Made by a program: the position numbers and the translations under genes. A DNA stretch of 64,000 nt from Malacoraja senta (lineage: Eukaryota), in assembly GCA_038087875.1 (NCBI GenBank), contig CM075993.1, positions 1,738,001 through 1,802,000 on the forward strand, read 5' to 3'. This document shows, piece after piece, positions 30,800 to 45,100 of this stretch. A model generated the notes under the pieces. It was not told the origin of the DNA. It saw nothing but the letters and a program-made list of their open reading frames with translations, and searched no databases. The stretch's first letter is position 1; each line of letters opens with the position of its first letter.

Positions 30800-31395
30800 C
30801 TTCCTTCCATTGCCTCCATCCACACCACACTGCCTCGACAAGGCCAGCAGTATAATCAAGGACGTGTCTCATCCCGATCGCTCCCTCTCCTCCCCCCCTC
30901 CCATCTTCTTCTTTCTGTGTCCATCTTGTTACAAACGTTGACCTCGCTGTCATCGTCCGTCCTGCAAAGGACGCAAGCTTCCGGCGACAATCAGTGGGAG
31001 CCATCACTTGTGGCAATAGATGATGGTGGTAGCAGAATTAGCGCAGGATACTTCCAGTTTCCAGCCCCGCGACGTGGACGCTACTACCATGGACGCTACT
31101 ACCTCTCCCATCAGGCAATAGGTACAGATGTGTGCAAACACGTATCTCCAGATTCAGGGAGAGTTTCTTCCCAGCTATTATCAGGTAATGGTCCTCTCAT
31201 CGGCTTGAGTGCAGGCCTGACCCATCTATCTCATTGGAGACCTTTGATCTATATTTAATCAGACTTTATCAGACTTCAATGTTATATCTGGCACTAAATG
31301 TTTCACCCTTTATCTGTACACTGTGTTCTGCTTGATTGTAATCATGTGCAGTCTTTTCTTTCACTAGATAGCAGGAAACAAAAGCTTTTCACTAG
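30800..31395 (+). mobile_element. Rex1/Babar-like LINE 3' fragment, host of the 30906-31104 insertion
   Basis: HCLDKASSIIKDVSHP...LPSGNRYRCVQTRISRFRESFFPAIIR resembles the Rex1 C-terminus. Confidence 0.6.
30906..31104 (-). mobile_element. Second (GAA)n-tailed short retroelement with a degenerate HDV-like ribozyme (31028-31088)
   Basis: 8-bp TSD CTCCCATC (30898-30905 and 31105-31112); tail ACAGAAAGAAGAAG; GCG-UCCACGU-CGC P3/L3, CUAA J4/2, P2 GGUAGUA/UGCUACC; 5' strand of P1 missing. Confidence 0.7.
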
Positions 31396-37395: not shown

Positions 37396-37984
37396 GGAGT
37401 AGCGATGAAGGGGTGGGGCCTCGTGGACAGATTGTTATGGGCTTGGACACGCTAGAGGCAGGAAACATGTTCCCGATGTTGGGGGAGTCCAGAACCAGGG
37501 GCCACACACAGTTTAAGAATAAGGAGTAAGCCATTTAGAACGGAGACGAGGAAACACTTTTTTCTCACAGAGAGTGGTGAGTCTGTGGAATTCTCTGCCT
37601 CAGAGGGTGGTGGAGGCAGGTTCTCTGGATGCTTTCAAGAGAGAGCTAGATAGGGCTCTTAAAAATAGCTGAGTCAGGGGATATGGGGAGAAGGCAGGAA
37701 CGGGGTACTAATTGGGGATGATCAGCCATGATCACATTGAATGGCGGTGCTGGCTCGAAGGGCCAAATGGCCTACTCCTGCACCTATTGTCTATTGTCTA
37801 TTGACCGCGCCTCCTGCGAGTGTGGGGACCCAACACAGACAGTGGAGCACATCGTCACCAGTTGCCCCAAACACCGGCCACCGAATGGTGAACAAGGTCT
37901 GATTGACCTGGACGATGACACGTTGGCCTGGCTCGCCTCAACGGAGCTGCAGGTCTAAAAGACACACGACAGAAGAAGAAGAAG
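37396..37984 (+). mobile_element. 3' end of an Ingi/Vingi-like LINE (CCHC zinc knuckle, (GAA)n tail), interrupted by a CR1 3' fragment at 37429-37802
   Basis: Removing the CR1 insert gives AMKGWGLVD-RASCECGDPTQTVEHIVTSCPKHRPP...WLASTELQV*, followed by ACACACGACAGAAGAAGAAGAAG. Clade assigned from the CxCG..QT..H....CP motif only. Confidence 0.65.
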
Positions 37985-41373: not shown

Positions 41374-42000
41374 GAAGTTGTTTCTTTGCTCTGTCTTTGA
41401 TGCTTCAGTTTGAAGGAATAGGAAGGAAGTACATGGAAATAGTGAGACTGCCTCACCTTTACACCTGCACCTACTGCTGACACTAATTGAACCTTGCGGG
41501 CAGCATCTCAGTGAGTCATGCCCCATACATCCCACAAAGCTTTACCCACCAGCTGACATCTACGTGTTATATTGGTTTTAACTCTCTCTAAGCGGTGATT
41601 ATCTCTGTGTGCCTTGTGCTTAAATACATTTGCACTTTGTCAGGAGTGTCGAGAGAAAAAATACAGCGCAGTATTTGGATAGTGTCATTGGAAACATGAA
41701 CCACGAGAATGCACGCACATAACTTACGCCAAGAGCCAAGAGCTCCTTCAGATCCTATGTCGAGGGGCAATCAAAACTGTTTTATCACAAATATTCATTG
41801 CCAGCTTTAGTTTCCATCCTTTTGATTTTCAAGTCTTTGGAAGGTTGATTGCTCGGGATTTAGGGCGTAGATAGAGTGGATGTGGAGAGGATGCTGCCAC
41901 TTGTGGGAGAGTCTAGGACTCAGAATTGATGTGTCGAAAGGAACTGCAGATGCTGGTTTACACCGAAGAGTAATTCTTCAGTCTGCAGAAGTGTCTCCGC

Positions 42001-42136
42001 CTTCTTCTTTCGTGTGGCGTGCACAGCCTAAAGTTGTTGGACAACTTGTTCTATTTGATCTTCCGTTTGTGCACGTCGAGTTGATTGCATTAGTCGAAAC
42101 AGGGCAGACCACGTGAAGGTTGCAATCTTCCACCCC
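42001..42136 (-). mobile_element. Short non-autonomous retroelement with a 5' HDV-like ribozyme and a (GAA)n tail
   Basis: 5' end is the ribozyme G1; 3' end CACACGAAAGAAGAAG; flanked by direct repeat TGTCTC (41992-41997 and 42137-42142); interrupts a PLE-derived hammerhead motif. Confidence 0.8.
42083..42136 (-). ncRNA. Minimal HDV-like (CPEB3-type) self-cleaving ribozyme fold, 54 nt
   Basis: GGGGUGG AA GAUUGCA ACC UUCACGU GGU CUGCCCU GU UUCGA CUAA UGCAAUC. P1 7 bp with G1.U wobble; P2 7 bp perfect; P3 ACC/GGU; L3 UUCACGU fits UYCHCGY; J4/2 CUAA carries the catalytic-position C; P4 nearly absent. Confidence 0.85.
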
Positions 42137-45100
42137 TGTCTCGACTTGAAACGTCACCTATTCCTTCTATCCAGTGATGCTGCCTAATCCACTGAGTTAC
42201 TCCAGCATTTTGTGTCCAGCCTCAGAATTTTGTTTAGTTTTTTGCCCAATGAATAGAATGTTGGAACAGACTTGTTGGTCTGAAGGACTTTCTCTCAGTT
42301 CTACGTTTCTATATCCTTTCATTGGTGCATCTTCACCCAAGAATAAAGGAGATTCAGGTGTTGTCATTTAGCTCTTAGGGCTAATGGAATCAAGGGATAT
42401 GGGGAAAAAGCAGGAATGGGATACTGATTCTGGTTGATCAACCATGATCTTATTGATTGGTGGTGCTGGCTCAAAGGGCCAAATGGCCTCCTCCTGCGCC
42501 TATTTTTTATGTTTCTATGTCACAAGCTTTATTGGAGAGTCTGTTTAGAGATACAGCAGGGAAACAGGCCTTTTGGCCCATCAAGTCCACGCTGTCCACT
42601 GATCACCCGTTCACACTAGTTTTATGTTATCCCATTTTCTCATCCATTCTCTCCACACTCAAGTAACCGCCAAACTCGCGTTGTAGGTCGATCCTGACTA
42701 CGGGTGCTGTCTGTACGGAGTTTGCACGTTTCTCTGGGTGCTTCCCGCATTCCAAAGATGTGCGGGTTTGTAGGTTAATTGGCATCTGTGGATTGTCCCT
42801 AGTTTGTAGGATAGAACTCGTGTGTGGGTGATCGCCCCTCGCTGCAGACATGGTGGGCCGAAGGGCCTGTTTCAATGCTGTATCTATAAACTGCAGGCTT
42901 GGTTACTATCTCCATTCTTTTCTCCCCAACGTGACCCATCTAGCAATCAACCCCCCCCCCCCCTCCCCCCCTCACCTGGATCTACCTATCATAGATTCTT
43001 ACAGAGTGGAAACTTGCCATCACTTAAGATAGACACAAAATGCTGGAGTAACTCAACGGGACAGGCAGCAACAGTCAAGGGATATGGGGAGAAGGCAGGA
43101 AATGGGTACTGATTGTAGATGATCAGCCATGATCACAGTGAATGATGGCGCTGCCTCGAAGGGCCGAATGGCCTACTCCTGCACCTATTATCTATTGTCT
43201 ATTGCATCTCTGGAGAGGAGGAATGGGTGACGTTTCGGGTCGAGACCCTTCTTCACTTGCCCATATCTTGCTAGCAATCCATTATTTTTCTCTTTACTCC
43301 ATTAGTAGGGTCCCGACCCGAAACGTCGTCTGTCCAATTCCCTCCACAGACGCTGCCCGACCCGCTGAGTTGCCCTGGATGTTTGTCTTCTTTTTAACTC
43401 GAGAGTCCAGCATCTGCAACCTCTTGTGTCTGTGGAATTCTCTGCCTCAGAGGGCGGTGGAGGCGGGTTCTCTGGATGCTTTCAAGAGAGAGCTAGATAG
43501 GGCTCTTAAAGATAGCGGAGTCAGGGGAGAAGGCAGGAACGGGGTCCTGATTGGGGATGATCAGCCATGATCACATTGAATGGCGGTGCTGGCTTGAAGG
43601 GCCAAATGGCCTGCTCCTGCACCTATTGTCTATTGTCTGTTACTGTCAATCATTAGAACTCCTCGACTGTAAAATATTGCAGGGGGATTCCTGACATGAC
43701 AGCACATCCAGATGCGAGCCTTCCTTTCATTCCACGAGTTCTTGCTCTCAGTTAGTTCTGTATGTTGTTCTGTGTCTGCCTTCATCGCTGGCTGCTTACG
43801 ATCAACATCTGGAACGCAGTAAGATACTTTGACTGAGTGCGAGTTTTATGAAAACACTGGAACAACTAGAGGATATTGGCGAGTGAGTAAGTGCTGTCAT
43901 CAATTAGATATTCCTAAGTATGATCACAGATGTCAATGCTGTACATGTGGCACTGAAGCCAGACCTCTGCAGTGGACTTCCATGGACTCCAGTTTAGTTT
44001 AGAGATACAGCGCGGAAACAGGCCCTTCAGGTCCGCACCGACCAGCAACCCCCACATATTAACACTATCCTACACACACTAGGGAGAACTTTTTTTACAT
44101 TTACCAAGCCAATGTACCTACATAGCTGCAAACGAAGATCTCGGCGAAAACCCACGCGGTCACGGGGAGAATGTACAAACTCCGTACAGAAAAGCACCTG
44201 TAGTCGGGATCGAACCCGGGTCTCTGGCGCTGCAACTCCTACCGCTGCGCCACCGTGCCGCCCAGTATTGCCGGCAGTGATATCTCCCATTCAACAGGCC
44301 AACATTCCTCACTGTTGATCAGTTTTCCTGGTTAAGGGAAGAATGTTGGCAAGGCCACCGGGAGCAATCCCCGCCTTTCTTTCATTTGAGGAGTGTTGTA
44401 GAGCGGAGAGATCTAGGAGTGCGGGTTCAATGTGCAGGAAGCAACTGCAGGTGCTAGTTTATACCAAAGGTGGACACAAAGTGCTGGAGTAACTCAGCGG
44501 GTAAGGCAGCATCTCTGGAGAAAAAGGATTGGTGATGTTTCCGGTTCGACCCAGGACTGAAGAAGGGTTCAGACCCGTAAAGTCAACCGTCATTTTTCCA
44601 GCATCTGCAGTTCCTTCCTGCAGCTATAAACATAATTCTATGTTAAGCTGATTTAAACCTTGAAACACAGGCAACTCATCATGCCTGTTAATTTCTGTAC
44701 TTGCATCGAGAAAGTTAGGTTAAAATTAACCCTAAAGGATCATTTGTGGGAATTGAATGAGATCTTATTGAGGATTTATGGTATATTAATCTGTTGTGTT
44801 GTTACAATGGGCCCGTATAGCTGCTGCTCGTAAGGATTTCATTGTTCTGGCCTCGATACGTATGACGAGGGGGTACAATGGTGCAGCGGGTAGAGCAACT
44901 GCCTCACAGCACCATGAGACACGGGTTCAATCCTGACCTCGGGCGCTGTCTGTGTGGAGTTTGCACGTTTTCCCGGTGACCGCGTGGGTTTCCTCCGGGA
45001 GCTCCGGTTTCCTCCCACATCCCAAAGACGAGCGGGTTTGTAGATTAATTGGCCTCTGGGTTGAGAATGGGGTAACAAAGAACTAGTGATGACTGGTGAT

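Follow-up and report, generated by a model that had tools for sequence, protein, structure and literature searches.

The 136 base pairs (bp) at positions 42001..42136 of the window, by which we mean the whole 64,000-nucleotide (nt) stretch of Malacoraja senta DNA analyzed here (GCA_038087875.1, contig CM075993.1, positions 1,738,001 to 1,802,000), are a minus-strand copy of a young retroposon family. Judging from its boundaries, from the fold of its 5' end, and from related elements in the same genome, we consider it likely (probability about 0.8) that this element is a retroposon resembling a short interspersed element (SINE) that depends on a long interspersed element (LINE), that it has no small-RNA head, and that it begins with a minimal, P4-less, self-cleaving head of the CPEB3 type among ribozymes resembling that of hepatitis delta virus (HDV-like). 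The same joint estimate covers the origin of the head, which we regard as the P4-deleted member of a CPEB3-type ribozyme set heading several LINE and SINE families.

A dispersed family with a single 5' end

In the genome assembly (1.94 Gb, 6,182 contigs), the 54-nt head was found at 2,433 places with at most two mismatches (0 places for the reversed-pattern control), and a query with all 136 bases returned 2,194 first-look candidates, 40 of which were scored and all span bases 1-136 at 99-100% identity. Thirty loci (L001-L030) were fetched with their flanks for the reading of boundaries and target-site duplications (TSDs). Every one of them begins at the same base, G1 of the head, with unrelated DNA upstream and no copy reaching beyond it, and all 30 end in CCACACGAAAG(AAG)n, that is, in (GAA)n tails. 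A TSD of at least 10 nt (at most one mismatch), with its upstream copy ending at base -1, was read in 27 of the 30, with one doubtful case (L021). In the three remaining copies, among them that of the window (L002), the TSD has 5-7 nt; the window copy has a short one (gagaca, or 7 nt if one mismatch is allowed) and the tail GAAAGAAGAAG. The parts of the window copy are as follows.

42137..42142, minus strand: upstream TSD copy (gagaca), abutting G1
42083..42136, minus strand: 54-nt putative P4-less HDV-like (CPEB3-type) ribozyme head, by sequence, Rfam, descriptor, covariation, and our own model
42016..42082, minus strand: SINE body, by folding, a long-range stem enclosing a hairpin
42001..42015, minus strand: 3'-terminal motif ACACGAAAG, then the (AAG/GAA)n tail
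41992..41997, minus strand: downstream TSD copy (gagaca), beyond the tail and 3 extra bases

Copies truncated at the 5' end, with TSDs of their own, were also found. TSDs, tails, the shared G1, and 5' truncation are what target-primed reverse transcription by a LINE leaves behind, and the family is dispersed and multi-copy with variable TSDs, as is expected of a retroposon. It is not a classical SINE with a small-RNA-derived head and an internal RNA polymerase III (Pol III) promoter, judging from Rfam scans, which gave no similarity to tRNA, 5S, 7SL, or snRNA, and from ARAGORN, which found 0 tRNA genes. An earlier note on this DNA, made from the letters alone, had placed the element at 42001-42136, its predicted cleavage site exactly at the 5' boundary beside the TSD, and a (GAA)n tail at the other end, and had denied it a tRNA head; all of this agrees with the 40 scored matches, with the TSDs that abut G1, with the tails of the 30 fetched copies, and with the small-RNA scans, while the copy number and the common 5' end that the note had proposed to look for came out at 2,433 head places and 30 of 30 copies starting at G1.

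Over the 30 copies, base -1 (the last TSD base) is T in 17, A in 6, C in 5, and G in 2, and the first TSD base beside the tail usually has AG or A before it in the target, which points to a preferred target and to microhomology with the (GAA)n tail. Five independent 5'-truncated copies with their own TSDs (loci L052, L061, L067, L068, and L062-L064) all start at element base 78 (42059), ATCAAATAG..., a base that falls in the internal loop of the long stem of the body; reverse transcription may pause or stop there, or the base may mark a second RNA end.

The head has the order of an HDV-like double pseudoknot

From 42136 the minus strand reads GGGGUGG-AA-GAUUGCA-ACC-UUCACGU-GGU-CUGCCCU-GU-UUCGA-CUAA-UGCAAUC, ending at 42083. 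Its elements (P, paired; J, joining; L, loop) are listed here in the 5' to 3' order of the minus strand.

42136, minus strand: predicted cleavage site, 5' of this G
42136-42130 with 42107-42101, minus strand: P1, 7 bp, with the G1.U wobble
42129-42128, minus strand: J1/2
42127-42121 with 42089-42083, minus strand: P2, 7 Watson-Crick bp, abutting P3
42120-42118 with 42110-42108, minus strand: P3, 3 bp
42117-42111, minus strand: L3 (UUCACGU), 7 nt
42100-42099, minus strand: J1/4 (GU)
42098-42094, minus strand: 5-nt linker UUCGA in place of P4
42093-42090, minus strand: J4/2 (CUAA), directly 5' of the P2' strand, with the putative catalytic C at 42093

The order P1-J1/2-P2-P3-L3-P3'-P1'-J1/4-(P4)-J4/2-P2' is that of the HDV-like nested double pseudoknot. 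P1 starts with a G1.U pair, and G1 is the boundary of the copies, seen as a boundary rather than as a measured cut. The P1.1 contact consists of one C-G pair plus U.U. The first base of J4/2 is C, and CNAA is kept, with N varying, in all subfamilies and in the seven lineages described below. The UUCGA linker stands where a P4 helix would be expected, which places the head in the "minimal" subclass of HDV-like ribozymes as that subclass is set out in PMC10879173 (this and the other papers cited are drawn on here in excerpt). From its sequence, the head would be predicted to cut itself 5' of G1.

The architecture was written as a descriptor: G1, a 7-bp P1 (G.U allowed), J1/2 of 0-5 nt, a P2 of 5-7 bp abutting a 3-bp P3, L3 of the form U[UC][UC]NCG[UC], P1' straight after P3', a 2-nt J1/4, 0-80 nt, and CNAA followed by P2'. 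On both strands of the window it has a single match, the site at 42136, and it has 0 matches in 200 dinucleotide-preserving shuffles of the window; its loosest form (one P1 mismatch, 5-bp P2) has 2 matches in the 200 shuffles. Over 329 kb of other genomic loci it matches 37 SINE heads and one LINE head (of LINE-A, see below), and nothing else. The Rfam scan of 111 nt placed RF00622, the CPEB3 ribozyme, at the top (19.8 bits, E 0.0022; gathering score 35), followed by HDV-F-prausnitzii with 14.2 bits, and both Rfam alignments use the same P1 and P3. The whole window scanned with Rfam at gathering thresholds gave no match, and an E-value scan of 2 kb gave no ribozyme family, only three unrelated weak matches. 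The elements that the earlier note had named (P1 with G1.U, a perfect 7-bp P2, P3, L3, and CUAA) are thus present letter for letter in the minus strand, the P4 that it had called almost deleted is replaced by five nucleotides, the likeness to CPEB3 that it had seen in L3 UUCACGU followed by GU agrees with the RF00622 consensus, and the Infernal search that it had advised pointed to the CPEB3 and HDV families.

Two young variants of the SINE differ at base 31, U or C, which makes either G6.U or G6-C in P1; the window copy has the minority U, the majority C. In older subfamilies, among the matches listed (100 of 225 places), J4/2 is CGAA rather than CUAA, and the bodies have several substitutions and a 10-nt duplication. 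Variation at the locus itself was counted from the mapped reads and contigs of four sequencing runs, at a threshold of at least 10% of reads. There are 10 variable positions in the 82-nt body and 4 in the head, namely base 8 (J1/2), base 31 (the wobble switch), base 42 (the linker), and base 45 (the N of CNAA), so that the Watson-Crick pairs, L3, the putative catalytic C, and both As of CNAA are spared. Three of these four lie among the 8 unconstrained head positions (2 in J1/2, 5 in the linker, 1 in CNAA); by a hypergeometric estimate calculated by hand, at least 3 of 4 random positions would fall there with p ~0.008.

LINE-A begins with an HDV-like fold

The only other (GAA)n-ending element in the 329 kb of fetched DNA is the 3' end of a LINE, which we call LINE-A. 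One copy lies in the window.

37803..37983, plus strand: 5'-truncated LINE-A copy, with the end of the open reading frame (ORF) carrying a CCHC-like motif, a stop, AAGACACACGACA, and a (GAA)n tail

The C-terminal 51 amino acids (aa) of LINE-A gave 3,296 first-look candidates. Its open frame of 609 aa contains RVT_1 (Pfam, E 1.4e-35), Exo_endo_phos scores 24.1 bits against a Pfam cut-off of 24.5, and, by arithmetic, the element is ~3.1 kb long with a single ORF. RVT_1 and Exo_endo_phos are the only Pfam domains of the LINE; a compact single ORF in which no RNase H domain was found fits the account of Vingi in the excerpt of a review. Reverse-transcriptase matches at 57-69% identity indicate that further related LINE families exist in the genome.

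In three aligned copies of LINE-A, mutual similarity begins at a single base (3/3), and this base is G1 of an HDV-like fold. Among 39 other copies, 13 begin exactly at G1 and 21 within 4 nt of it. Another 17 begin 8 nt inside; these all lie on small unplaced contigs and are probably one amplified copy. The fold consists of P1 GGGGGAG/CUCCUCU, J1/2 AC, P2 AAAGACA/UGUCUUU, P3 GCC/GGC, L3 UUUACGC, a 36-nt P4 region, and J4/2 CCAA, and the copy at L077:1714-1798 satisfies the descriptor unchanged. The AUG sits in the 3' strand of P2, and the endonuclease domain follows directly.

A truncated SINE copy and a LINE-A copy that starts 8 nt into the head recur, with identical flanks, on many small unplaced contigs (C96, C4511, C6117, and many of C1xxx-C5xxx); these recurring copies are probably parts of a satellite-like or segmentally amplified block.

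LINE-B and further CPEB3-type families

A search of the genome with RF00622 scored 59 places, 39 of them above the gathering score (best 64.2 bits, E 2.7e-14), and the same model gave nothing above the cut-off in 14 control genomes. Twenty-eight of the 59 places were fetched and sorted into families.

Family B (LINE-B): P4 present, 8 bp; GGGGAUC AA GGUAGAA GCG UUCACGU CGC GAUCCCU GU, P4, CGAA UUCUACC
Family C: P4 present; P3 GCA/UGC in L084; J4/2 CUAA
Family D: P4 present; L3 UUCUCGU; P2 AGCAGGA; P4 CAGAUUCU..GAAUCUG
Family E: P4 present (5-bp stem); P2 AGAAGGA/UCCUUCU
Family F: P4 absent; 5-nt linker (UUCCA or UUUCA) and CCAA, as in the SINE

With standard cmscan, all eight loci tested from families B-F pass the RF00622 gathering score of 35, at 43.7-61.3 bits. 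Family F, at 43.7 bits, is P4-less with a 5-nt linker and has helices unlike those of the SINE. Family B is a LINE, in which an ORF with an endonuclease domain at its start lies ~30 nt past the ribozyme, and G1 of the ribozyme (57-64 bits on RF00622) is the 5' boundary in 5 of 5 copies, so that this boundary is directly observed in the SINE and in two LINEs. Its 3' end, read in two copies, runs from the stop through ~20 nt to ACACGAAAAG(AAG)n. Where the endonuclease domain begins, LINE-A and LINE-B share only 27% identity over 106 aa, which implies that the design of a ribozyme followed by an ORF predates their split, i.e., is old. The SINE thus has company in this genome, in a set of LINEs and SINEs headed by CPEB3-type ribozymes, which goes beyond what the earlier note had claimed.

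In L092, a decayed copy of family D, 54 of 67 positions agree with the Rfam RF00622 consensus (counted by hand on the alignment); two of the mismatches form a compensatory P2 pair, and the identity runs through the helix sequences of P2 and P4. Because identity in P2 and P4 goes beyond structural need, it argues for common descent with the CPEB3 ribozyme over convergence. The exact 22-place core GCGUUCACGUCGCGNNCCCUGU occurs only 32 times in the genome, a number in keeping with a scarcity of full-length LINE 5' ends and with decay at three CpGs. The most CPEB3-like copy tested, L086 on contig C10, was considered as an orthologous intronic ribozyme and this was not supported; CPEB zinc-finger exons were found on C2259, C2128, C15, and C17, and none on C10.

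Six exact core copies with the P1' variant GGACCCU, which is absent from the fetched families, lie within 1.1 Mb (G000:C2:2650559-3776432) and may be a local cluster or a segmental duplication. Straight after P2', the motif ACCAC (or UCCAC) is conserved in five of the seven lineages (LINE-A and families C-F; L084-L109, L077), although their helices differ. Family F copies L087, L100, L104-L107, and L109 begin with GGGGUC, where a 7-bp P1 with G1.U would need one more G; either their P1 is 6 bp long, with G1-C, or insertion cost a base at the 5' junction. The search for the extent of family D was dominated by another repeat, and no tail was seen in it.

Helices change and pairing stays

Twenty-four heads (3 SINE, 5 F, 7 B, 4 C, 3 D, 1 E, and 1 LINE-A) were aligned over 85 columns, and the pairs of P1, P2, P3, one P1.1 pair, and 6 pairs of P4 were scored; L095, L098, L103, and L104 were left out though parsed (5' ends decayed or truncated, or a core indel), and L094, L101, L102, and L109 were left out as unparsed. 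Of 515 cells, 91.5% hold a standard pair, vs. 74.3% after shuffling (reached in 0 of 500) and 35-45% when the partner is slid by 1-3. Pairs changed on both sides number 16 of 24 (shuffled mean 11.3, reached in 0 of 500), and the covariation score is 0.476, vs. 0.172 in the control (reached in 0 of 500). P2 is paired in 97.5% of its cells, with compensatory changes in 6 of its 7 pairs, and the P1.1 pair is C-G in 22 rows and U-A in LINE-A. The covariation in P1 and P2 that the earlier note had proposed to look for is therefore found, in the form of compensatory changes that keep both helices across related heads.

A uniform 5' end, TSDs, and a LINE-like tail are marks of any SINE, and the nested minimum-free-energy fold of the head is not unusual, as would hold for an ordinary Pol III-type SINE or some other repeat whose HDV-like 5' end is a coincidence. 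Against such a coincidence, the motif is found in none of the 200 shuffled windows and the element has no similarity to tRNA, 5S, 7SL, or snRNA, while independent LINE and SINE families of the same genome have the same 5' architecture with compensatory helix changes, several of them exceeding the curated threshold of Rfam. We therefore regard coincidence as highly improbable.

The 3' end and the candidate partner LINE

In the minus strand of the body, CGUGCACA (42075-42068) pairs with UGUGCACG (42025-42018) and encloses a 7-bp hairpin, AAGUUGU-CCA-ACAACUU (42047-42031), with a folding z of -1.62; the stem is 10 bp long in an older subfamily, as read from the sequence. This stem-hairpin may, on the folding model, be a module that the reverse transcriptase recognizes.

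The partner candidates were found via other (GAA)n-tailed ends (LINE-A) and via RF00622 matches (LINE-B). The SINE and LINE-B 3' ends have in common the 8 nt ACACGAAA and the tail, and this, with the (GAA)n repeat, is all that the SINE shares at its 3' end with a LINE of the same genome, the similarity of the body being not significant; nor is the similarity between the SINE body and the 5' untranslated region (UTR) of LINE-B. The element is probably not a short internally deleted element (SIDE), both termini of which would be identical to those of a parent LINE, since its head helices differ from those of LINE-A and LINE-B. Pattern searches for the 29-nt 3' end and for the head (100 of 225 places listed) found no LINE with the termini of the SINE. 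The 3'-end search yielded SINE derivatives with indels, 5'-truncated copies, and older subfamilies: where the 29-nt end is joined to non-SINE sequence, 62 of 62 cases are SINE derivatives, 15 loci having been examined closely. Where the head is joined to non-SINE sequence, only older subfamilies and interrupted copies were seen among the 100 of 225 places listed.

One apparent LINE partner, L073, with a SINE head followed by a 5' UTR, ORF1, and ORF2, was rejected as a nested mosaic. At L073/L074 (G000:C5:52393200-52400800), a GC-rich repeat of ~240-260 bp (2,637 first-look candidates) interrupts an old SINE copy near base 58 and is followed by an unrelated L1-type element. In this element, ORF1 has 280 aa, ORF2 has ~1,294 codons and a single in-frame stop, and AATAAA and poly(A) are present.

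The following life cycle is proposed. Copies would be transcribed passively within longer host or read-through transcripts, as is suggested by the lack of a recognizable promoter and by published relatives that are described as promoter-less (PMC6765202). The head would then fold as the nested double pseudoknot and cut 5' of G1, which would set the exact 5' end of the RNA. A single-ORF LINE of the apurinic/apyrimidinic endonuclease (APE) type, itself with a (GAA)n tail, would supply the reverse transcriptase, which would prime on ACACGAAAG(AAG)n at the nicked target, and target-primed reverse transcription would copy the RNA to G1, leaving TSDs of ~10-16 bp. LINE-B is the best candidate for the partner and LINE-A the second, each of them headed by an HDV-like ribozyme of its own; what favors LINE-B is that ACACGAAA beside the tail and the CPEB3-type core are common to it and the SINE. 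Each computable check that the earlier note had named turned out as it predicted, and its reading of the element as a ribozyme-headed SINE that would define its 5' end by self-cleavage is to that extent supported.

RNA reads and the weighing of alternatives

One raw-read poly(A) RNA sequencing run (X24) was mapped over the locus; its organism is possibly not the host, its strands are mixed, and its strandedness is unestablished. Several results weigh against the reading of the element as a LINE-dependent, ribozyme-headed SINE. In X24, read starts are not piled up at G1, and 131 reads cross 42136 into unlike flanks while 117 cross 42001; a small uncapped RNA would escape such a run, since poly(A) selection would not capture it. 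The SINE head has no P4, and its 19.8 bits on RF00622 are under the gathering score of 35. Folded with nested pairs alone, the head does not stand out (z 0.18), as is expected where pseudoknots lie outside the nested model. The covariation statistics lean toward structure because the rows were chosen and registered by a structure-aware parse, and the relatedness of rows within a family makes the shuffle control overstate significance; the slid-partner control and the count of distinct helices in seven lineages are free of this kinship weakness. As to the partner, the link consists of the tail repeat and 8 terminal bases in common, the 82-nt body compared with the 3' ends of LINE-A and LINE-B is not significantly similar (558 and 859 of 2000 shuffles score equally), and the exhaustive pattern search found no LINE with the exact 29-nt 3' end of the SINE.

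The missing P4, the RF00622 score, the absence of a surplus of molecule starts at G1, and the many reads across the site would all suit a head that keeps the fold without cleaving, G1 being inherited from a few master copies with transcripts that chance to begin there and the fold having another role such as binding of a LINE protein or a function at the 5' junction; the R2 protein is reported to bind a pseudoknot in its ribozyme region, and the ribozyme may have roles beyond cleavage (PMC6765202). On the other hand, no subfamily or sister family has lost the putative catalytic C or either A of CNAA, while the intervening N is G, U, or C, family F provides a second P4-less family with the same 5-nt linker and different helices at 43.7 bits, and P4-less HDV-like ribozymes are reported to be active in vitro (PMC10879173). 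Besides, the 136-bp element has no known promoter motif, and to suppose a promoter that fixes the start at G1 would be an extra assumption. A non-cleaving head is, in our judgment, improbable.

Less easily set aside, though still rather unlikely, is a mobilizer other than LINE-A or LINE-B, or an element that is a SIDE of an unsampled LINE with a matching head and 3' end. The helix sequences of the SINE are unlike those of both LINEs, its body is not significantly similar to their 3' ends, and the reverse-transcriptase matches at 57-69% identity attest to more related LINE families. However, the 62 of 62 SINE derivatives behind the 29-nt 3' end, and the finding of older subfamilies and interrupted copies only behind the head (100 of 225 places listed), speak against a parent with these termini, and LINE-B has the exact 8 nt ACACGAAA beside the same tail.

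In X24, the depth of first mates on the SINE body is 100-183 on the minus strand vs. 40-87 on the plus strand (2-2.7x), while flanking repeats are at ~1:1. This skew could reflect fewer sense SINE transcripts, either by self-cleavage or by selection against sense insertions in genes.

Relation to known ribozymes and retroposons

Retrotransposons that lack long terminal repeats (non-LTR) and are processed by ribozymes are known in insects, trypanosomes, and a few other groups. HDV-like ribozymes process R2 and its SIDEs (PMC3414825), occur in L1Tc/NARTc and the ingi clade of trypanosomatids (PMC3185411, PMC4035085, PMC3383444) and in RTE and baggins (PMC6765202), and are used by some LINEs and SINEs of diverse metazoans (PMC6765202), while variants of the twister ribozyme are described in Schistosoma non-LTR elements (PMC8501958). 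Minimal, P4-less HDV-like ribozymes are described from metagenomes and phages, and their origin and function are called open (PMC10879173). The CPEB3 ribozyme is described, in the excerpts drawn on, as a mammalian sequence whose conservation spans more than 100-170 million years and whose origin is unknown.

The SINE head is like the CPEB3 ribozyme (RF00622) in L3 UUCACGU and J1/4 GU, which are identical to the consensus, in J4/2 CGAA, which is found in the older SINE subfamily, and in its weak P1.1, one C-G plus U.U, as in bioRxiv 10.1101/2022.09.22.508989; the sister families here, at 43.7-64.2 bits, score above the gathering score. It is unlike the CPEB3 ribozyme in having no P4, a score of 19.8 bits, and other P1, P2, and P3 sequences, and in lying, multi-copy, at the 5' end of a mobile element: the CPEB3 ribozyme is a single-copy sequence in an intron of mammalian CPEB3, whereas the SINE head is at 2,433 places.

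Like the R2 SIDEs of Drosophila, the SINE is short and non-autonomous; there, an HDV-like ribozyme frees the 5' end from a co-transcript, and the 3' end is used by the LINE protein for target-primed reverse transcription (PMC3414825). R2 SIDEs are, as described, internal deletions that keep the ends of the parent and are site-specific in 28S ribosomal DNA, whereas the SINE is dispersed with variable TSDs, has a body unrelated to the candidate LINEs, and carries a much smaller ribozyme (54 nt, no P4). L1Tc and NARTc likewise are a dispersed LINE and a short partner, with a ribozyme in the first tens of nucleotides that frees the element from longer transcripts; according to the excerpts, however, their 77 nt double as an internal promoter, and LINE and SINE share sequence, while the LINE and SINE heads here are alike in architecture and core motifs and differ in the sequences of their helices, and no promoter function is known for them. 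RTE and baggins are similar in being promoter-less, transcribed within other RNAs, and headed by a 5' ribozyme, with an ORF that starts at or just after the ribozyme (PMC6765202); in LINE-A the AUG lies within the P2' strand. They differ in being invertebrate elements with larger ribozymes, and a likeness to the CPEB3 family is not reported in the excerpt of that paper (PMC6765202). In the minimal or theta ribozymes, too, a few nucleotides replace P4 and the catalytic C stays first in J4/2, but they are metagenomic or phage-borne and tRNA-associated (PMC10879173), whereas the SINE head belongs to a eukaryotic retroposon with P4-keeping CPEB3-type relatives.

Our searches found no literature that links the CPEB3 ribozyme to vertebrate retroposons, and a prior description is possible. 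Ribozyme-headed SINEs as a kind are already known; the P4-less CPEB3-type variant is new as far as our searches reach.

Other features of the window

A second short retroposon of another family is present in the window.

30904..31097, minus strand: retroposon of ~189 bp with a CPEB3-type-like head, by our own model, and tail ACACAGAAAGAAGAAG

Its head scores 28.3 bits (E 3.3e-6) with our own RNA model (R1), its TSD is atgggag(a/g)gg, and it has 2,016 first-look candidates in the genome. Thirty-seven of 39 scored copies begin at 31092, a few bases inside the predicted P1; this P1 may be non-canonical or decayed, or the window copy may differ at the tip.

The 136-bp SINE itself sits in a very abundant repeat (41928-41969 and 42138-42221) that reads ...gctggagtaactcag...gacgtttc..gtcgagac, the insertion point, and ..cttctgcagactgaag. 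Junctions between 41969 and 42216 on opposite strands occur in reads (125+115 in run X24) and in contigs, which implies that the host repeat is also present elsewhere in an inverted or hairpin arrangement.

What the finding means

Within the reach of our searches, two aspects are new. A P4-less "minimal" HDV-like ribozyme would have a clear job here, that of defining where a highly amplified eukaryotic retroposon begins at its 5' end, and the family that Rfam names "Mammalian CPEB3 ribozyme" heads active-looking LINEs and SINEs. It is this wider occurrence of the CPEB3 family in LINEs and SINEs that makes the finding interesting. The natural variants, seven lineages that differ in their helices, with and without P4 and with G, U, or C as the N of J4/2, form a mutational series for the CPEB3-type core that is also new within these searches. 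We give even odds to the view that the CPEB3 ribozyme is the domesticated 5' head of an old vertebrate LINE/SINE lineage, the mammalian intronic copy being a fossil retroposon insertion that was kept, and that this lineage is still alive in the present genome, as CPEB3-family ribozyme-headed LINEs and SINEs with P4-less miniatures in the thousands. The origin of the CPEB3 ribozyme, long open, has thereby become a testable question.

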